In this document: positions 41,602 through 62,762 of the stretch, piece by piece
How positions within the stretch are numbered: the first letter of the stretch is position 1
Layout: every line of letters starts with the position of its first letter
Assembly: GCA_963807605.1 (NCBI GenBank)
Contig: CAWECG010000004.1
Span: 1 to 64,000, forward strand
DNA length: 64,000 bases
Source: Candidatus Bathyarchaeota archaeon
GTDB lineage: Archaea; Thermoproteota; Bathyarchaeia; 40CM-2-53-6; RBG-13-38-9
Direction of reading: 5' to 3'
Program-made: the position numbers and the translations under genes
The notes under the pieces: model-generated
The model's database searches: none
The model's input: the letters and a program-made list of their open reading frames with translations, nothing else
What the model was told of the DNA's origin: nothing

Positions 41602-42727
41602 TAGCCTCTTGCAATATTCTTGGGCTTAACATGAAGATGTATACGTGTTTTTGATCATAAGATCGATGAGCTTTACACCCACTCATGCCGTTTCTGGTGA
41701 AAAAGAAGTGAGCGAGTGTAAGGCTCTGTATGATCTGTTTCAGGCTTTGGATTTAACGTTTGTAGAACAAGTCTTAGAAAGAAGCTATGGAAGAAGAAGC
41801 AGCGTCGGCAGACCCCATAGAAATTTACTTGGAATGTTCAAAGCAGAGCTTGTCAAACGGCTAAGACACATAGAAAGCTACGAGGAACTATACCGACTTC
41901 TATGGAGCGACGGTGAACTCTGCAAACTCTGCGACATCAAGGAATCAGAGAATCCATATCACCCATCAATACTTCTGAGGTTTCGACGTAGAATAGGCCC
42001 TCAAGGATTTCACCGCCTCATGAACCGTCTGATCAAACAGCTTGACCACATGGACATTCTGGACTCTGAAATCCTAGCGTTAGACGTCACATTCATCAAA
42101 GCTTACAGTCGAAGAGATCCTCACAATACCCAGTGTGGATTATCCGATTCTGAAGCCAGATTACGAAAACAAGGTAGAAACGTGATCTTAGGCTACGGCA
42201 TACACCTTGCTGTAGACACCATCAGCGAGATGCCGCGGGCAGTCACCATAGAACCTGCAAATGTAAATGAGAAAAAAGTTGCACCCCACCTCCTCCATAA
42301 AGCATTGAAGAAGAAACATAGGTGGAAGAGCATGACTGCAGACTCACAATACTCCAGCGAAGCTTTCAGAGACAAGGCAAGATCTATGGGCATAGAACCA
42401 ATCATACCTTACCCTAGAAACCAGATGAAGGGCAAACAGGTTCTACGAATCGACCGGAAGTTCCGCTCACACGGACCTGCCCGTCTGAAACAACTGTATA
42501 AACGTCGATCCTCAGTGGAGAGAACATTCTCAAGACTCAAGACACACTTCGGATTGTCTCAGCTTCGAACACGCGGCCTAAGAAACGTCATATCACATGT
42601 ACTTCTCTGTCTGCTGGCTCTACTGGCAACTGCCTTATCCGCGATCAAGCACGGACACATCGATAAAATGCGGTCACCAATCCAGTTCACAAAATTAACA
42701 CAGAAAATATAATATTGCAAGAAGCTC
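41602..42727 (+). mobile_element. IS element (DDE, IS4/IS5-superfamily-like) with ~16-bp TIRs, inserted in a (CG)n tract
   Basis: AGCCTCTTGCAATATT (41603-41618) vs AATATTGCAAGAAGCT (42711-42726); GCGC on both flanks as probable target duplication. Confidence 0.85.
41645..42712 (+). CDS. DDE transposase
   Basis: ALDVTFI, GYGIHLAVD, ADSQY, YKRRSSVERTFSRLK. Confidence 0.93.
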   Translation: MFLIIRSMSFTPTHAVSGEKEVSECKALYDLFQALDLTFVEQVLERSYGRRSSVGRPHRNLLGMFKAELVKRLRHIESYEELYRLLWSDGELCKLCDIKESENPYHPSILLRFRRRIGPQGFHRLMNRLIKQLDHMDILDSEILALDVTFIKAYSRRDPHNTQCGLSDSEARLRKQGRNVILGYGIHLAVDTISEMPRAVTIEPANVNEKKVAPHLLHKALKKKHRWKSMTADSQYSSEAFRDKARSMGIEPIIPYPRNQMKGKQVLRIDRKFRSHGPARLKQLYKRRSSVERTFSRLKTHFGLSQLRTRGLRNVISHVLLCLLALLATALSAIKHGHIDKMRSPIQFTKLTQKI

Positions 42728-52018: not shown

Positions 52019-52876
52019 TTGCCTTCAACACACCCTGAGTTCACGGTAAGGCATTTGTCAGCAACAGCAAAGGCCGAAGTCTATAAGGTCAACGTCGGGG
52101 AGGACCTGGCCTCAGTTGTTGAAGAGGAAGTTGCGGTTGAGGCTCCAGCCAACATCTACCTTAACAAGCAACATCTGGTCACCCTGCTCTCTTCTCCCAC
52201 CATGCTCTGCGAGTTGGCAGTGGGACACTTGTTTTCGGAGGGGATACTCAAAGACAAAGAGACGATCAAGGAAGTCTTGGTTGCCGGGACAGACGTTCAC
52301 GTGAAACTCAAAACTGGGGCCAAAGTTGAACTTGAACGTATCAAGATCGGTAGGGTTGTCACGACAGCGTGTGGTTCACTCGTCGATTATCTGGCATTGC
52401 TCGCACAGATCAAGACAAAGATCTCAGCACAATATTCAGTCTCCACAAGTGACATAGAGAGAATGATCACTGAGCTCAACAATAGCTCTAGAGTCTTCAG
52501 GGCTACGGGTGGGATCCATTCTGCAGCCATATTCAAGGGCACGACGATGGTTGCTTTCGCTGAAGATGTTGGACGCCACAATGCTGTGGATAAGGTTGTA
52601 GGAGCCTCTGTTCTAAAAGGTGTGAATTTTGGTACGTCCGTCCTTGTTACCTCTGGAAGGCAGACGGCGGATATAGTCGCAAAGGCGGCTCAGATGGGGA
52701 TACCGTTTTCGATATCCATCTCTGGGCCGATCCACTCCGGGATAAAGCTCGCTGAGAAGGTTGGTATAACCCTCATCTGCTTCGCGCGAGGAAGAAGATT
52801 CAACATCTATACCTCACCAGAGAGGGTGAGATTGCCCAACGGTGCACCGATCAAGACCAAGCCCCAATCTTCTTAG
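52019..52876 (+). CDS. fdhD: Formate dehydrogenase accessory sulfurtransferase
   Basis: TTACG, ATGGIHSAA, EDVGRHNAVDK, TSGR. Confidence 0.94.
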   Translation: MPSTHPEFTVRHLSATAKAEVYKVNVGEDLASVVEEEVAVEAPANIYLNKQHLVTLLSSPTMLCELAVGHLFSEGILKDKETIKEVLVAGTDVHVKLKTGAKVELERIKIGRVVTTACGSLVDYLALLAQIKTKISAQYSVSTSDIERMITELNNSSRVFRATGGIHSAAIFKGTTMVAFAEDVGRHNAVDKVVGASVLKGVNFGTSVLVTSGRQTADIVAKAAQMGIPFSISISGPIHSGIKLAEKVGITLICFARGRRFNIYTSPERVRLPNGAPIKTKPQSS

Positions 52877-56044: not shown

Positions 56045-56518
56045 TTGGCCGAAGTTGCGAAACAAAAGATCCTAGTGTTTGACAAACGTGTCTGCACTGG
56101 CTGTAGACTCTGTGAACTTGCATGCTCCTTCGCGAAGTTCAATAACACATACAGCTACCAGAAGACACACATCCGACATGTTATAGAGTTTGATCGAGGC
56201 GAGATCGAGTGCCAGTACTGTCAGCACTGTGAGGAACCATTATGCATGGCATCCTGCCCAGCCAAAGCCATACACAAAGACGAGAATACTGGCATAGTGA
56301 AAATCAACCACTTGGAATGCATCGGTTGCCAAACGTGCAATATAGTATGTCCGGCACGCATACCAAAATTCTATGCTGAAAAAAAGATATCGATGAAATG
56401 CGACCTCTGCGATGGCGATCCAGCCTGCGTCAAATACTGTTCACCTATGGCGATAAGTCTCGTGACAAGAGAGGAAGCGGACAACTTACTAAAACAGATC
56501 TATGGCGGGAGAAAGTGA
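56045..56518 (+). CDS. 4x[4Fe-4S] electron-transfer protein (HycB/CooF-like)
   Basis: CTGCRLCELAC, CQHCEEPLCMASCP, CIGCQTCNIVCP, KCDLC.GDPACVKYC. Confidence 0.9.
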   Translation: MAEVAKQKILVFDKRVCTGCRLCELACSFAKFNNTYSYQKTHIRHVIEFDRGEIECQYCQHCEEPLCMASCPAKAIHKDENTGIVKINHLECIGCQTCNIVCPARIPKFYAEKKISMKCDLCDGDPACVKYCSPMAISLVTREEADNLLKQIYGGRK

Positions 56519-56645
56519 ACTCCTTGATAGACGGATCAAAATCACGCAAGGGGTATCGTTCCAGAAATCCGGCACATGAGATAATATTTGACCGCGGTTC
56601 TCTTCTACAGAGTTGCTTAGCATACTGACTCTCGAGGTGCTGCTG

Positions 56646-57312
56646 AAGTTGGCTCAAGAAAAAGAAGTGCTCCAAAGTTTACGGAAAGAGTTGGCAACTA
56701 ATTTCATCGCAGAATCGAGAATGTCCACAGACAGGCCAGTAGCCATAATCAACAAAGAAGCTCTACTTCAAGCTCTCAGGATATTGGTGGAGAAATACGA
56801 TTCGAGATTGTGCACGATAACCGCCATAGATAACGGACTAGACTTCGAACTAATCTATCACATGAGCATAAAAGGGCTAGTAATCAATGTAAAGACCACA
56901 GTCCCCAAAGAAGAGTCAGAAATAGTCTCCATCACAAAGATCATCCCCGGCGCAGCCACGGCTGAAAGGGAGATATGCGACCTCTTCAAGATTAACTTCA
57001 AAGAACTCGCCGATTCACGAGCACTCATAGTCCCATACGAGTGGCGAGACACCAAGGTTCCCCTGAGAAAGCCAATGGGCGGGATAGTCACAGAGTACCA
57101 GAAACCGACAGTTGAGACCCTCATGCAGCAGGGCCAAGTCTTCACCATGCCTTCCAGTGTCAAAGCTCACAGACAAAACCTGAAACTTCCAGGAGATCCA
57201 GACGACCATGGCCAGACCCGAAGCCCTCAAGGAACTCCACGAGATAGCTGAGGAAGTCAAGTTCGACAAGAGAGTAGGCTACGACTGGTTGAGGAAGAAG
57301 TTGAGGTACTGA
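56646..57312 (+). CDS. NuoC/EchD-like hydrogenase subunit with HdrC-like C-terminal tail; +1 frameshift near 57192
   Basis: RLCTITAID...ELIYH, SIT...PGA...EREICDLF.I.F, PLRK. After removing one G it reads LPEIQTTMARPEALKELHEIAEEVKFDKRVGYDW to TGA 57312. Confidence 0.75.
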
Positions 57313-57315
57313 TCC

Positions 57316-58206
57316 TTGGAGTCCAAGAAGGAATACTCCATGTTCTGGGGTTGCTGGGTCCCCTCAAGACAGCCAAGCATAGAGGCTGCCTGCAAATCAG
57401 TCTTGAGCAGATTCAAAATTGGAATCAGAGATATGGAAGGGGTCTCGTGTTGCCCCGACCCCGTCGTCACCGAGAGACTTCAACGCGAGATGTGGTTAGC
57501 CTTGGCCGCAAGAAACCTCTCGATAGCCGAAAAGTCTGGAACGGCTCTAGCTACAATCTGCAATGGATGCTATGAAACCTTCTTCGAAGCAATAGAGACA
57601 ATGAAAACCGATGAAGGTCTGCGAGGAAAGGTAGAGAATGCCCTTGACAGAATAGGAACGACCCTGCCTCAAAAAACAGAGCTCAGACACATAATCGAGA
57701 TCCTAGGCCAAGACATCGGAGTCGAAGAGATCGCAAAGCTAAGCTCAAAAAGGCTTAGGAAATTGAATGTTGCCGTACATCCTGGCTGTCATCTGTACAG
57801 ATCTCACAGCCGGGAGGAAGTTCAACACAAACCAGAGATGTTTGAGCAGATCGTCGCAGCAACAGGAGCAAACCTCGTAGACTATGGAATAAAGAGGTTC
57901 TGCTGTGGATACCCCCACCGAGTGGTTGAGGAAGAGTTCTCCCTGAAGATGATGCTTGCCAGAAAACTCCAAAGAGTCTGGGACGCAGATGCAGACTGCG
58001 TCGTGGTATCCTGTCCAGCATGCAATATACAATTTGAGTTTGGACAGCTTGAACTTAAACGAAAATATAACATAGCCTTCGGCTCAGGGATCCCCGTAAT
58101 CCACATAGTCGAACTCGTTGCCCTGGGTCTGGGCATTAAACCCGAAGAAATCGGACTTCAGACACACAGAGGCCCAACTTCAAACATTACCTCAAAGTTG
58201 GAGTAG
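57316..58206 (+). CDS. hdrB: Heterodisulfide reductase subunit B
   Basis: Two intact CCG domains: FWGC...SCCPDP...CNGC and HPGCH...CCG...CPAC; QFEFGQ. Confidence 0.92.
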   Translation: MESKKEYSMFWGCWVPSRQPSIEAACKSVLSRFKIGIRDMEGVSCCPDPVVTERLQREMWLALAARNLSIAEKSGTALATICNGCYETFFEAIETMKTDEGLRGKVENALDRIGTTLPQKTELRHIIEILGQDIGVEEIAKLSSKRLRKLNVAVHPGCHLYRSHSREEVQHKPEMFEQIVAATGANLVDYGIKRFCCGYPHRVVEEEFSLKMMLARKLQRVWDADADCVVVSCPACNIQFEFGQLELKRKYNIAFGSGIPVIHIVELVALGLGIKPEEIGLQTHRGPTSNITSKLE

Positions 58207-58213
58207 GTTAAAT

Positions 58214-59367
58214 ATGTCATTCATTCTTCCAATAGGCCCCTTCCATCTGGCACTCAAAGAGGCAGCATATTTCAAACTTGAAGTTGAGGGCGAAAGATAG
58301 TCGGCGGAGACTTCAAATTCGGATACATGCACAGAGGAATCGAGGATCTTGCGACAAAGAAATCCTACCACCACAACATCTTCCTAGCAGAGAGAGTCTG
58401 CGGAATCTGCAACACCGTCCATTCTACGTGTTACACTCAAACAGTTGAGGCCCTGATGAACATCGAACCTCCAGAACGGGCCAAGTACATCAGAACAATC
58501 GTCTTCGAAACAGAAAGGCTTCAGAGTCATCTGCTCTGGTTCGGAGTAGGAATGCACGAGATCGGCTACGACACTGCCTACATGTACATGTGGCGAGAAC
58601 GAGAAAATGCTGTGGAAATACTAGAGGCTGTTTGTGGAAAGAGGGTGAACCTTGGGATAAACACGATAGGCGGGGTTAGAAGAGATATCACACCTGACAA
58701 AGAGGGCTTGATAAAGACAAAACTAGATCTCATTGAAAGGGCAGTCAATAAGATTGGCAAATTCCTCATTGAAGATAGAGTCTTGAAAGCACGAGTCAAA
58801 GATGTCGGGGTGCTCACAAAGGATGAGGCCAAGAAACTGTGCGTCGTTGGCCCAACGGCGAGGGGCTCAGGAATCGATATGGACACAAGAAGAGATGACC
58901 CATATGCTGCCTACCCTTATATTGACTTCAACGTTCCAGTGGAAGAGAACGGCGATGTGCTCTCGCGAACATTGGTCAGACTTTCAGAACTCTTCCAATC
59001 GATAAGGATCATCAGGCAAGCCTTGAGAGACCTTCCCAAAGGCCCAGTATCGGTGAAGGAACTTCCATTTCCTAGAATCAACGACGCATTTGGGAGAGTC
59101 GAAGCTCACCGTGGGGAACTTCTATACTACATCCGGTCAAACGGCACGAATTATCCTGAAAGAGTAAAGATACGCACGCCTTCAGTAGTGAACAATAATT
59201 CAATTTTGCCCATGGCTCTTGGCGAGACGATTGCTGATTTTCCAATAATATTGGCGAGTATCGACCCCTGCTTCTCTTGCACAGACAGGGTAACCATAGT
59301 CGACACCAAGAAGAATGTGAGCAAGACTGTTGCTCTATCCAGCCTCGGCAGGAGTGGAAATCAATGA
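58214..59367 (+). CDS. Group 4 [NiFe]-hydrogenase large subunit; -1 frameshift at ~58295
   Basis: PIGPFH.ALKE start, GYMHRGIE, L1 RVCGICNTVH, L2 DPCFSCTDR plus C-terminal extension; GAAAGATAG needs one more A to read EKIV. Confidence 0.9.
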
Positions 59368-60278
59368 CCTCAGTCCTTGAGATCTTAATTGGCGTCTTCG
59401 TCTACCCAGGACTAATATTCTCCCTCGCCATCGGTGGAATGTTCTATTGGCTCTACCGGAAGATTCGGGCAAGATTACAGGCCAGACGAGGGCCACCATG
59501 GTACCAGTTCTTCATCGATCTAATCAAGCTCTTTTCAAAAGAATCCATAATCCCCTCCTCAGGGAGAGGCCTCCTAGTAGTGCTAGCACCCATAATTGCA
59601 ATCATCGGCCTCCTCTTCACTATCGTGATGTTGCCTCTGGGTTCAGCTCCCTTAGTGCAATTTGACGAAAGCCTGATAGTAGCACTTTACTTCCTTGCGT
59701 TCCCAGGATTGGCGATGATTATGGCCGGAGTCAGCTCAGGCTCACCTTATGGCACTGTCGGGTCAAGTCGTGAGGCTCGCATGATGATAGCCTACGAACT
59801 CCCCTTCGTCCTTTCCGCATTGACATTGGGTTTCTATCTGAAATCACTTAGCATCGCATCGATAACGCAGTACCAATTGGATCATGGGATGTTTGTATTC
59901 AAGTATCCACTGTCAACAATCGCCTTCATTCTCTGTCTACTTCCTAAGATCAGTCGGCGTCCCTTCGACGCTCCAGAGGCAGACACCGAGATAATCGCAG
60001 GACCATTAACAGAGTATTCAGGGGCGCTACTAGGTCTATTTGAAATAGTCAACGGCGTCAGGTGGTTTGTCCTTCCAGCTTTCGCTGTCACACTCTTCCT
60101 AGGGGGAGGAGCGAATATCATTGAATTCTTATTGAAATGCCTAGGCCTAGTCCTAATAATATCATTTATCGATGTAATTTATCCACGCTTCAGGGTCAAT
60201 CAAGGATTTGGATTCTTCTTAAAATGGGTTCTCCTGCTTGCTCTGATAGATTTCATAAGGAGTCTAATCCTGCCATGA
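59364..60278 (+). CDS. NuoH/HyfC-like membrane subunit
   Basis: RKIRARLQARRGPP, YELP, PFDAPEADTEIIAGPLTEYSG, PRFR. Confidence 0.93.
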   Translation: MTSVLEILIGVFVYPGLIFSLAIGGMFYWLYRKIRARLQARRGPPWYQFFIDLIKLFSKESIIPSSGRGLLVVLAPIIAIIGLLFTIVMLPLGSAPLVQFDESLIVALYFLAFPGLAMIMAGVSSGSPYGTVGSSREARMMIAYELPFVLSALTLGFYLKSLSIASITQYQLDHGMFVFKYPLSTIAFILCLLPKISRRPFDAPEADTEIIAGPLTEYSGALLGLFEIVNGVRWFVLPAFAVTLFLGGGANIIEFLLKCLGLVLIISFIDVIYPRFRVNQGFGFFLKWVLLLALIDFIRSLILP

Positions 60279-60820
60279 AGAGACACATAATCTCAGATGC
60301 TCTCCGAAGTCTAGTAAACCCATCTACAACAAAATATCCCAAGAAATCTTACACCCCTCCAGATGGCTACAGGGGCGCGGCTGAGTATGATTCGGAAAAA
60401 TGTGTGGGTTGCGCAGCCTGCTCCCAAGAGTGCCCACCTGAGGCCATCACATATAGTGATGGAGAAAAGACACGCAACATCAAGCTAAGCTATGGCCTCT
60501 GTTCATTTTGCGGTCGTTGTGAGGAGATCTGTCCATGGGACGCAGTCCACCTTACAAAGAAATTTGAACTAGCAGTCTTCAACCGAAAAGAGGCTGAAAC
60601 AGGGGTCGAGGTACCTTTCTTTGAGTGCACTGAATGCGGAAGGCCCTTCTTTCCTTCCCCGCAAATGAAAGCCTCGATCGAGAAAGTTAGAGAGACTCTA
60701 GAAAAGTATAAGATTAGAAAGGACGAGCTGGCCGGCCTAATCTCCATCTGTCCAACTTGCTCATTTGCTGTTGACAAAATGCCTGAGAGGCGAATGTTTC
60801 TGAGGAGACTTGTGGGGTGA
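60275..60820 (+). CDS. NuoI/HyfH-like ferredoxin subunit
   Basis: TTKYP, CVGCAACSQECP, CSFCGRCEEICP, additional CTEC/CPTC. Confidence 0.92.
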   Translation: MKRHIISDALRSLVNPSTTKYPKKSYTPPDGYRGAAEYDSEKCVGCAACSQECPPEAITYSDGEKTRNIKLSYGLCSFCGRCEEICPWDAVHLTKKFELAVFNRKEAETGVEVPFFECTECGRPFFPSPQMKASIEKVRETLEKYKIRKDELAGLISICPTCSFAVDKMPERRMFLRRLVG

Positions 60821-60824
60821 CTTG

Positions 60825-61505
60825 ATGACGGAGGGTCTGCGATCATTTGCTAGAAGAAAATCCCCCTGGGTTATGCATGTCCCATGCGGAGGATGCAATG
60901 GGTGCGACATAGAGATTGTTGCCTCACTCACACCAAAATATGATGTTGAGAGATTCGGAGTACTTCAGAAAGGCAGTCCACGACACGCCGACGTGCTACT
61001 CGTCACAGGTATAGTAACTGCCCAAGTGAAAGATAGGCTTAAGAGACTATATGATTTGACGCCAGGTCCCAAGCATGTTGTGGCGTTTGGCTCCTGCGCC
61101 TTAGATGGAGATATTTTCCGCCCCGGATATGGATTTGCAGGGCCCCTAGACGAGGTCCTACCGGTCAGCATCTACGTCCCAGGATGTCCACCACGACCTG
61201 AAGCCCTGATCGATGGCCTTAGCAAGTTACTAAGGCCGGCGCCTCGCAAAAAGAGAATTGTAACTGAAGTCTTCACCGGCGGAGAAACTGAGAGACCGTC
61301 AGCTGAACCGACGGATATGGGTGTCACGACCAAACGTGGTACCCGGAAGGGCTTCAACGAACAATTAGCCGAATTCATCTTATTCACAGGGCTCACACTT
61401 GCAGCACTAGGATTGTACTACGAAGGCTTCAATATTCTAGTTGTCGCAGCAATATTTCTGATGGGGCCTATTGTGAAGCTGCTGTCGAGTATTTTCAGGA
61501 GATGA
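60825..61505 (+). CDS. NuoB-like hydrogenase small subunit with C-terminal TM extension
   Basis: CGGCNGCDIE, SPRHAD, GSCA, PGCPPRPEA; hydrophobic tail FILFTGLTLAALG...ILVVAAIFLMG. Confidence 0.92.
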   Translation: MTEGLRSFARRKSPWVMHVPCGGCNGCDIEIVASLTPKYDVERFGVLQKGSPRHADVLLVTGIVTAQVKDRLKRLYDLTPGPKHVVAFGSCALDGDIFRPGYGFAGPLDEVLPVSIYVPGCPPRPEALIDGLSKLLRPAPRKKRIVTEVFTGGETERPSAEPTDMGVTTKRGTRKGFNEQLAEFILFTGLTLAALGLYYEGFNILVVAAIFLMGPIVKLLSSIFRR

Positions 61506-61708: not shown

Positions 61709-61966
61709 ATGGGACTGTTCAAGAGACGAGATGAAAACGACGTATTCGCAGGAGGGGAAGAGGCGCCTCCTTTAGATAAACGAAGACGTCATATGCGTGC
61801 ACGCGTCTTCATGGCAGTCACGCTCGTTTTGATAACCTTAATCGACTGGTATGTAACCTCCTCCGTGCTATCCAGCAATACTCCATTTACATTTTGGCTT
61901 CTTTCTATTCTGCTGACAATACACATAGGCTGGATCCTGGTAGCCATCGCAATCCTTGCCCCATAA
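61709..61966 (+). CDS. Small 2-TM membrane protein
   Basis: Two hydrophobic segments. Confidence 0.55.
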   Translation: MGLFKRRDENDVFAGGEEAPPLDKRRRHMRARVFMAVTLVLITLIDWYVTSSVLSSNTPFTFWLLSILLTIHIGWILVAIAILAP

Positions 61967-62181: not shown

Positions 62182-62475
62182 ATGGATTGGATTTCTATCT
62201 CTGAGGTTTTTGGAGCATTTTTCGCACTCGCCTCAATTATTCTTTCCCTGTGGATAATGGCCAGAGTGAAGCGTGGGGCCTCCGCATGGATATACCTCGG
62301 CATAACTTCATTTTGCATGTTCTTCGCTATGATTCTAGGTATTGCTGGAATGCTATTCCCCGTCAACCAAGATATCCAGCGTCTTGAACAATACATGTTC
62401 CTCTTGGCTGGTGCCTTGTCATTTGCCATTAGTGGAATCAAGCTCCAAGAGACGTTTACGTACAAGGAGCTTTAG
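62182..62475 (+). CDS. Small 3-TM membrane protein
   Basis: Three hydrophobic segments; RG.SAW.YLG motif. Confidence 0.65.
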   Translation: MDWISISEVFGAFFALASIILSLWIMARVKRGASAWIYLGITSFCMFFAMILGIAGMLFPVNQDIQRLEQYMFLLAGALSFAISGIKLQETFTYKEL

Positions 62476-62486
62476 AGGGAAGTCAC

Positions 62487-62762
62487 TTGAGTCCAATTGA
62501 GCCGCTTATCGACGCCGTGGTAGCTGCATGTTTTCTTTTCGGAGCAGTCTTCTACTTGATGGTAGCTTACGGTGAAAGGCGGGGCATGGCATGGAGATTC
62601 CTAGGAACTGCAGGCGCAATCTGGTTCGTAATACTCTTCCTAAAATTGATCAATAATATGGCCGAGTTTCCTTGGGTTTATGGAACGGTCCGAGCCGCGG
62701 TTGCACTGACTCTGGGAGTCTACCTTCTTGGAATAATCATCTTGGCAAGGAGTTTACAGTAG
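62487..62762 (+). CDS. Small 3-TM membrane protein, apparent paralog of the upstream gene
   Basis: Three hydrophobic segments; RGMAWRFLG motif. Confidence 0.65.
   Translation: MSPIEPLIDAVVAACFLFGAVFYLMVAYGERRGMAWRFLGTAGAIWFVILFLKLINNMAEFPWVYGTVRAAVALTLGVYLLGIIILARSLQ

Follow-up and report, generated by a model that had tools for sequence, protein, structure and literature searches.

What might a [NiFe]-hydrogenase do that is tied to the membrane, carries the disulfide reductase subunit HdrB within its operon and has no subunit of a known ion pump? The question is raised by a seven-gene cluster at positions 56045-61505 (+ strand) of a 64,000-nt stretch of DNA from a Candidatus Bathyarchaeota archaeon (contig CAWECG010000004.1, positions 1 to 64,000), the whole of which we call the window. 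The best explanation, and in our view a probable one, is that the cluster encodes a group 4 [NiFe]-hydrogenase that is anchored in the membrane and wired to HdrB without an ion pump, an antiporter-less derivative of the Ehd-like hydrogenases of the Thermoproteota. Its most likely function is that of a membrane-anchored, non-pumping H2:disulfide oxidoreductase. Below, C1, C3 and C4 are contigs of the same genome (G000), and G, L and f labels denote other genomes, loci and families. Open reading frames (ORFs), Pfam domains and predicted transmembrane (TM) helices gave the following features, with protein lengths in amino acids (aa):

56045..56518, + strand: HycB/HybA/DmsB-type polyferredoxin, 157 aa; Pfam Fer4_11 and related families; ~16-17 Cys in four Cys groups
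56613..57312, + strand (called ORF 56613-57251): NuoC-like subunit, broken as assembled; Pfam Complex1_30kDa
57316..58206, + strand: HdrB-like disulfide reductase subunit, 296 aa; two Pfam CCG domains
58215..59367, + strand (called ORF 58327-59367): group 4 [NiFe]-hydrogenase large subunit, broken as assembled; Pfam Complex1_49kDa and NiFeSe_Hases
59364..60278, + strand: NuoH-like integral membrane subunit; Pfam NADHdh (E 1.7e-68); ~8 TM helices predicted by hydropathy scan
60275..60820, + strand: HycF/NuoI-like 2x[4Fe-4S] subunit; Pfam Fer4 families; C-terminal extension with CxxC...CxxC
60810..61505, + strand: NuoB-like small subunit (proximal [4Fe-4S] cluster); Pfam Oxidored_q6; Cys motifs seen
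61709-61966, 62182-62475 and 62487-62762, + strand: three small hydrophobic ORFs, 2-3 TM helices each (TM scan)

The order of the seven genes and their tight junctions, as described in the earlier note on this DNA, were borne out by the ORFs and Pfam domains. The widest junction is that between the ferredoxin (Fd) gene and the NuoC-like gene (95 nt); from the NuoC-like gene on, neighbors are separated by 3 nt and 8 nt and then overlap by 4 nt, 4 nt and ~11 nt. All four Ni ligands claimed for the large subunit are present, in the motifs RVCGIC and DPCFSC of the window ORF, and the Cys columns of these motifs were invariant among 12 homologues. The best matches of the large subunit in the PDB were HycE (7Z0S_E, E 1.9e-82) and MbhL (6CFW_L, E 1.1e-79), and the protein extends C-terminally beyond the DPCxxCxxR motif. 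Its top NCBIfam matches were NuoD/FpoD models, all under their cut-offs. NuoB-, NuoC-, NuoI- and NuoH-like partners are all present, as in group 4 hydrogenases; the antiporter-like (NuoL/M/N or Mrp) subunit of such enzymes is missing. Its motifs and homologies place the protein with the large subunits of group 4 (complex-I-related) [NiFe]-hydrogenases.

HdrB aligned over its full length with the solved HdrB 5ODC_B (E 8e-62), with all ten Cys positions matched, and each of its CCG domains holds a ligand set for a noncubane [4Fe-4S] cluster. It scored 254.6 bits against NCBIfam TIGR03288, below the CoB-CoM equivalog cut-off of 345, and is therefore a diverged HdrB. The polyferredoxin, predicted to carry up to four [4Fe-4S] clusters, found its best PDB matches in AOR/WOR5 Fe-S subunits and HycB (7Z0S_B) and was of HybA/DmsB/HydN type by NCBIfam; neither collection gave an HdrC match. 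Its gene came first in the cluster in all relatives compared, and it may be what the Ehd papers call HdrC. The NuoI-like subunit matched best, over residues 16-174, a formate hydrogenlyase Fe-S subunit subfamily (NF009053). As the earlier note had it, Pfam found no NuoL/M/N-like, hdrA or canonical, full hdrC gene in the cluster; no Proton_antipo_M gene lies in or beside it, and quinone- or phenazine-related subunits are likewise absent from it.

The retained HdrB Cys residues, the Ni motifs and the ~8 TM helices of NuoH support the proposal of that note that the product would be a membrane-bound H2:disulfide oxidoreductase resembling Ehd. A further membrane segment is predicted in the NuoB-like subunit, in which a 90-aa C-terminal extension ends in 1-2 TM helices (residues 200-225); this tail is present in G014 and absent from G002, G012 and G005. 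The three small TM ORFs directly follow the NuoB-like gene on the same strand, here and in three other genera of family f1 (G014, G005, G013), and do not occur at this place in G002, G012 or G066. They matched no Pfam family, NuoA/J/K and Mrp families included. They are possible extra membrane subunits, and their membership of the complex is uncertain because of gaps of ~200 nt and because general synteny within the family is high.

The arrangement is kept well beyond this genome. Of 41 close relatives, 27 have an orthologue of the window HdrB, as do 38 of the 301 genomes that were sampled from the class. Every orthologous locus that we fetched, in Bathyarchaeia and Nezhaarchaeales, had the core order Fd-NuoC-HdrB-large subunit. 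The earlier note had made its reading depend on synteny of hdrB in relatives, and hdrB is syntenic: in every fetched cluster of this family it lay between the NuoC-like gene and the large subunit. The same gene order kept across many genomes indicates that the arrangement is not due to chance. The best named homologues were from Bathyarchaeia, and the relatives with the window's form of the cluster include the Bathyarchaeota metagenome-assembled genome JAGTQV01 (isolate QZM_B1_bin_58). What differs between the clusters is the membrane arm, and we distinguished four types:

Type A: an 851-aa NuoL-like antiporter (Proton_antipo_M) between the Fd and NuoC genes; families f3, f6 and f9 of the same order and four Nezhaarchaeales-type genomes
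Type B (window form): without the antiporter; eight other f1 genomes and, independently, G066
Type C: without the antiporter and NuoH; two f5 genomes (G019, G027; loci L020, L021)
Type D: Fd-NuoC-HdrB-large subunit-NuoB-NuoI, soluble-looking; eight other Bathyarchaeia families (L129-L142, L080)

In the two type C clusters, NuoI and then NuoB come straight after the large subunit. In the type D clusters, tblastn detected neither NuoH nor an antiporter; several of them have a second HdrB-like or a GcvH-like gene nearby.

We placed the window enzyme among these forms in a quick maximum-likelihood tree of 64 large subunits, assembled without the named Ehd, Ehe and Drh sequences. Types A, B and C formed one clade (Shimodaira-Hasegawa-like approximate likelihood ratio test, SH-aLRT, 97), in which the subclade of B and C that contains the window (support 100) lay among type A lineages. 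The L001-type clusters, of which one is found in the window's own genome (see below), were sister to A, B and C (support 88), and type D formed a clade of its own (support 100). Because the window subclade is nested among antiporter-bearing lineages, parsimony favours an ancestor that would have borne the antiporter, with later losses. Type C branches in the same large-subunit subclade as the window and takes the loss of the membrane arm one step further.

Two observations concern antiporters and the type B clusters of other genomes. In G002 (L046 10222-15139, minus strand) and G012 (L047), antiporter-like genes (497, 637 and 233+ aa) and a NuoK-like gene (202 aa) lie convergently, directly downstream of the pump-less cluster, and one of these antiporters is 47-48% identical to that of type A. 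This set might form a membrane module that is encoded on its own; the window's genome has nothing that corresponds to it. In G066, an L001-type operon with the antiporter and a window-type operon without it stand back to back (L126; G066:C29:54000-66858), divergently, and have one intergenic region in common. Among 401 sampled genomes of the phylum of Halorhabdus (locus L095), none of the 20 best large-subunit loci had an hdrB gene. Matches there that seemed to contain one internal TGA were rejected as cases of selenocysteine, the TGA being the natural stop just after the C-terminal motif.

The earlier note missed that the NuoC-like gene and the large-subunit gene each contain a single-nucleotide indel. 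In the large subunit, the true start is the ATG at 58215, and the frame of the N-terminal 26 codons (58215-58292) is lost by a missing base at ~58293-58297, in a GAAAG stretch, to leave a 346-aa remainder beginning MHRGIE. In the NuoC-like gene there is an extra G at ~57191, and the conserved C-terminal 39 codons are in frame at 57193-57312. In a DNA alignment with four relatives, both indels were unique to this assembly. Large-subunit homologues were intact at 384 aa, among them P0001 (97% identity), the same-genus genome G001 was intact at both genes, and the restored NuoC tail was 50-88% identical in all relatives, in which it is in frame.

Compared with same-genus and same-family genomes, every gene of the cluster showed a ratio of nonsynonymous to synonymous substitution rates (dN/dS) of 0.04-0.2 (NuoH, 0.09-0.10). 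Downstream of the shifts the restored frames gave 0.12 (NuoC-like tail) and 0.05-0.07 (large subunit); the exception to the low values was the 26-codon N-terminal piece of the large subunit, in which a dN/dS of 1.4 came from too few sites to mean anything. Across the genome, frame breaks were found in 12 of 246 ORFs (~5%) when compared with their orthologues in the same-family genome G002. Since ~5% of conserved ORFs show such shifts genome-wide and dN/dS stays low, we consider assembly errors the probable cause of the two frameshifts. The genome (2.65 Mb in five contigs) suggests long-read assembly, without proving it. Programmed frameshifting was considered and rejected, there being no slippery heptamer at either site and all relatives being in frame. 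Other frame breaks were seen at C4:305532, C3:990300, C1:496575-496609 and C4:381089-381111, some beside G5-G6 runs, and gene calls throughout this genome should be treated as indel-prone.

The rest of the genome restricts what the enzyme could be working with. The earlier note had seen no mcr in the window and reasoned that the disulfide may differ from that of methanogens; in agreement with this, a search of the 94%-complete genome found neither McrA nor ComA, and CoM-S-S-CoB, the heterodisulfide of coenzymes M and B, is probably not the substrate. Ten Thermoproteota genomes outside the Bathyarchaeia that bear HdrB-hydrogenase clusters lacked McrA as well. MvhD/FlpD and DsrC were not found in the window's genome. 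Of the NiFe maturation genes, HypD (E 2.9e-135) and two HycI-type endopeptidases were found. Two further NiFe-type large subunits are encoded. One belongs to an Fpo/Nuo-like cluster of 11 subunits (L002 6730-16846; C4:252700-262800), whose NuoD homologue has the motifs ERICGIC and DPCMSC and which is followed by a HycI-type protease gene; it matches the Fpo-like 11-subunit hydrogenase kind of Bathyarchaeia (Loh et al., PMC7886697).

The other is part of a further operon for a group 4 hydrogenase linked to HdrB (L001 6059-16403; C4:420000-430400), with the order Fd, HdrB, a weakly NuoK-like 115-aa gene, antiporter, fused NuoCD with Ni motifs, NuoH, NuoI, NuoB, a GcvH-like gene, a GlcD-type flavin adenine dinucleotide (FAD) oxidase and an HdrD/GlcF-like gene. 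In clusters of this type, hdrB directly follows the Fd gene. The 115-aa gene was considered as the lipoyl carrier and rejected, being weakly NuoK-like; the GcvH-like gene is the 144-aa ORF after NuoB. All antiporter-like genes of the genome lie in these two clusters, at C4:257-262 kb and at C4:422 kb, and their identity to the antiporter of type A is 25-37%. Upstream of the window cluster lie a DDE transposase of an insertion sequence element (41645-42712, +) and an FdhD/NarQ-family gene (52019-52876, +). A formate dehydrogenase partner near the latter was looked for and rejected, no such gene being seen at positions 30-56 kb of the window.

Gene content and motifs were observed directly, as were synteny, purifying selection and the context in the genome; the contacts between subunits, the direction of the reaction, the substrate and the lack of pumping are what we infer. 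By homology with formate hydrogenlyase (7Z0S) and Mbh (6CFW), electrons would leave the [NiFe] site of the large subunit for the proximal cluster of the NuoB-like subunit. They would then run through the two clusters of the HycF/NuoI-like subunit and up to four clusters of the polyferredoxin, the proposed electron wire from the NuoI-like subunit to HdrB, and finally through the two noncubane clusters of HdrB to the disulfide. HdrB would thus occupy the place that FdhF has in formate hydrogenlyase, and NuoH together with the TM tail of NuoB would tether the module to the membrane. As there is no NuoL/M/N-like subunit, ion translocation of a known kind is not expected.

The best substrate candidate is a lipoylated carrier protein of the GcvH type, which we regard as a lead and not as a result. 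The lipoyl-lysine motif occurs in three GcvH-like proteins of the genome, which also has genes of the LplA/BPL family; neither GcvT nor GcvP was found in it. GcvH-like genes stood beside 5 of 6 L001-type clusters, all three Nezhaarchaeales type A loci with enough flank and 5 of 15 type D (soluble) loci, and beside none of 76 group 4 loci without HdrB. A role of GcvH as disulfide carrier has been proposed for Ehe (Kohtz et al. 2022, PMC9723716). One of the GcvH-like carriers of the window's genome is encoded at the end of four DGC-domain genes (L152 3434-8139; C3:541400-546100), with an ArsR-type regulator upstream and two S-adenosylmethionine-dependent methyltransferase genes downstream.

The lipoyl couple lies at ~-290 mV, near the H2 couple at low H2 partial pressure. 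We estimate from textbook potentials that transfer of electrons from H2 to a lipoyl disulfide releases ~24 kJ/mol at standard conditions and approximately nothing at low H2, and transfer to CoM-S-S-CoB ~53 kJ/mol. With a substrate that yields so little energy, loss of the pump would be understandable. Were lipoyl-GcvH the substrate, the reaction would be near equilibrium at environmental H2 and could go in either direction, and the pump would be dispensable. More broadly, the window enzyme might be one step in a series of membrane-arm losses within Bathyarchaeia (pump-bearing, NuoH-anchored and pump-less, without NuoH, soluble), in which the HdrB module of these non-methanogens acts on the lipoyl disulfide of GcvH instead of CoM-S-S-CoB, so that the enzyme is a near-equilibrium H2:lipoyl-protein oxidoreductase with no need of a pump. 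We put this forward tentatively, as something rather less probable than otherwise.

Several points count against a non-pumping H2:disulfide oxidoreductase derived by loss of the pump. In this enzyme class H2:disulfide activity is purely an inference, as no purified or assayed member is known. The polyferredoxin differs from a canonical HdrC, and frameshifts break two of the seven genes as assembled. The relatives are non-independent samples. The root of the tree and several inner nodes were not resolved, so that the case for loss of the pump is one of parsimony and falls short of proof. Within ~5 kb of the type B and C clusters, none of nine had a GcvH gene; the idea of a lipoyl carrier therefore rests on the paralogous and the more distant clusters.

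Four other explanations were weighed. If both frameshifts were real, the operon would be decaying and its enzyme no longer made, the paralogous HdrB-hydrogenase operon (C4:420-427 kb) and the Fpo-like hydrogenase having taken over. The two indels do lie within 1.1 kb, in the NuoC-like gene and the large subunit, the genome-wide rate of ~1 per 18 kb of compared ORF sequence predicts ~0.3 breaks in 5.5 kb, and two other NiFe-type large subunits are at hand. However, frameshifts are common in conserved genes of this five-contig assembly, as expected for indel-prone long-read data, purifying selection on the frames beyond both shifts is strong (dN/dS 0.05-0.12) and these frames have no further stops, and no break is seen in the 97%-identical homologue P0001 or in the same-genus genome G001. 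We believe decay to be improbable. A functioning enzyme could instead run in the H2-evolving direction as a redox valve for fermentation, in place of an uptake enzyme, venting as H2 the electrons of reduced ferredoxin, received via the polyferredoxin, or of a dithiol such as a dihydrolipoyl protein, received via HdrB. Group 4 hydrogenases typically evolve H2, the closest solved relatives are formate hydrogenlyase and Mbh, the paralogous L001 operon joins the same module to a GlcD/GlcF-type dehydrogenase and GcvH, and by our calculation the lipoyl and H2 couples lie near each other when the H2 partial pressure is low. The sequence does not set the direction, though; HdrB is known only as a reductase or in the reversible sulfur-oxidising sHdr system, and the window operon encodes no dehydrogenase partner. 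On balance H2 evolution strikes us as unlikely.

Pumping would have to be restored to the complex by borrowed antiporter-like subunits, or by NuoH and the three small downstream membrane proteins acting as a minimal ion path. The strong conservation of NuoH, the small TM ORFs after NuoB in four genera and, in G002 and G012, the opposite-strand genes of antiporter-like and NuoK-like type just past the cluster all speak for pumping. The antiporter-like genes of this genome belong to two other complete clusters, though, with identities of 25-37% to the type A antiporter; the small TM ORFs match no NuoA/J/K or Mrp family and are missing from G002, G012 and G066. We accordingly give pumping little credence. 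It seems very improbable that the enzyme is no hydrogenase at all and instead a reduced Fpo/Nuo-like complex, as its database name ('NADH-quinone oxidoreductase subunit D'), the sub-threshold NuoD/FpoD matches in NCBIfam and the occurrence of hdrB2 in reduced fpo operons of Bathyarchaeia (Qi et al. 2021, PMC8407382) might have it. The large subunit has both Ni-binding Cys pairs, which do not vary within the family, Pfam NiFeSe_Hases matches at the N-terminus, the protein extends beyond DPCxxCxxR, HycI-type proteases and HypD are encoded in the genome, and there are no quinone or phenazine subunits.

A membrane-anchored, pump-less hydrogenase wired to HdrB thus remains our preferred explanation. 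The operon is real and conserved, and its enzyme type (Ehd-like/Drh) has already been described from genomes. HdrB-linked group 4 hydrogenases are in print (PMC9723716, PMC6046458, PMC8407382), so that the earlier note overstated the novelty of the finding, which adds detail to a known enzyme type and opens no new question. Such hydrogenases are predicted in many uncultured archaea, methanogens and non-methanogens, and may couple H2 directly to thiol/disulfide chemistry. To these the locus adds a clean pump-less form that is still anchored in the membrane; the sister lineages that keep the pump or have lost the whole membrane arm make a natural comparison set for what this arm contributes. The candidates for the substrate are narrowed by the genome, which has neither CoM nor Mcr genes, three lipoylatable GcvH-like proteins and no glycine cleavage system.

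Group 4 hydrogenases that interact with HdrB have been described as Ehd (Methanomethylicia), Ehe (Culexarchaeia), Ehg (Nezhaarchaeia), Drh (Methanocellales, without antiporter) and an Ehd-like clade to which Bathyarchaeia sequences belong (Kohtz et al. 2022, PMC9723716). The Ehd-like clade also covers Culexarchaeia JZ-bin-30 and non-methanogenic Nezhaarchaeia (PMC9723716; PMC12700198), the latter reported in a 2025 paper (PMC12700198), and hdrB2 was found inside reduced 'fpo' operons of hot-spring Bathyarchaeia (Qi et al. 2021, PMC8407382). Canonical HdrABC and the window cluster have in common an HdrB with two CCG motifs for noncubane clusters; the window HdrB falls below the equivalog level, no HdrA or HdrC is encoded with it, and FlpD/MvhD is missing from the genome. 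The solved structures nearest to the large subunit are those of formate hydrogenlyase (Hyc, 7Z0S) and Mbh (6CFW), and the HycF-like and HycB-like subunits are common to formate hydrogenlyase and the window cluster. In the latter, however, HdrB instead of FdhF is the peripheral catalytic partner, antiporters of the HycC/HyfB or Mrp type are missing, and NuoC and NuoD are split by hdrB and not fused.

Nearer at hand, the L001 operon, which resembles the Ehe of Culexarchaeia, is likewise an HdrB-linked group 4 hydrogenase with a polyferredoxin of the same type (45% identity between window and L001). It differs from the window cluster in its antiporter, its GcvH-like carrier and dehydrogenase partners, its gene order and its fused NuoCD, and the two HdrB proteins are only 34% identical. 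With Ehd and the Ehd-like complexes the window cluster has in common a group 4 core co-located with HdrB and an Fe-S protein, and a non-methanogen host has already been reported for Ehd-like. Its large subunit falls in the SH-aLRT 97 clade with the Fd-antiporter-NuoC-HdrB-LSU-NuoH-NuoI-NuoB clusters (LSU, large subunit) of Bathyarchaeia and Nezhaarchaeales, which ties it to the published clade indirectly. The antiporter-like subunit is part of the definition of Ehd and is missing in the window, as in the other f1, the f5 and the G066 clusters, and the Fe-S partner is a four-cluster HycB-type protein instead of a canonical HdrC.

Drh, named 'disulfide-reducing hydrogenase' (Lyu & Lu 2015, as cited in PMC9723716 and PMC6046458), is up-regulated during syntrophic growth of Methanocella (PMC6046458). 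Like the window enzyme, it combines a hydrogenase of group 4 type at the membrane with HdrB and lacks an antiporter subunit; for it, so far as those citing papers relate it, direct H2-driven disulfide reduction without energy conservation was proposed. Its host is a methanogen and its presumed substrate CoM-S-S-CoB, whereas the window genome lacks McrA and ComA. Because the clade without a pump lies among the Ehd-like clusters of Thermoproteota, the pump-less state of the window cluster probably arose inside the Ehd-like clade of Bathyarchaeia, convergently with Drh as this is described; inheritance of that state in common with Drh is very unlikely. Set against the descriptions of both, the window cluster would work like Drh and descend from the Ehd-like group.

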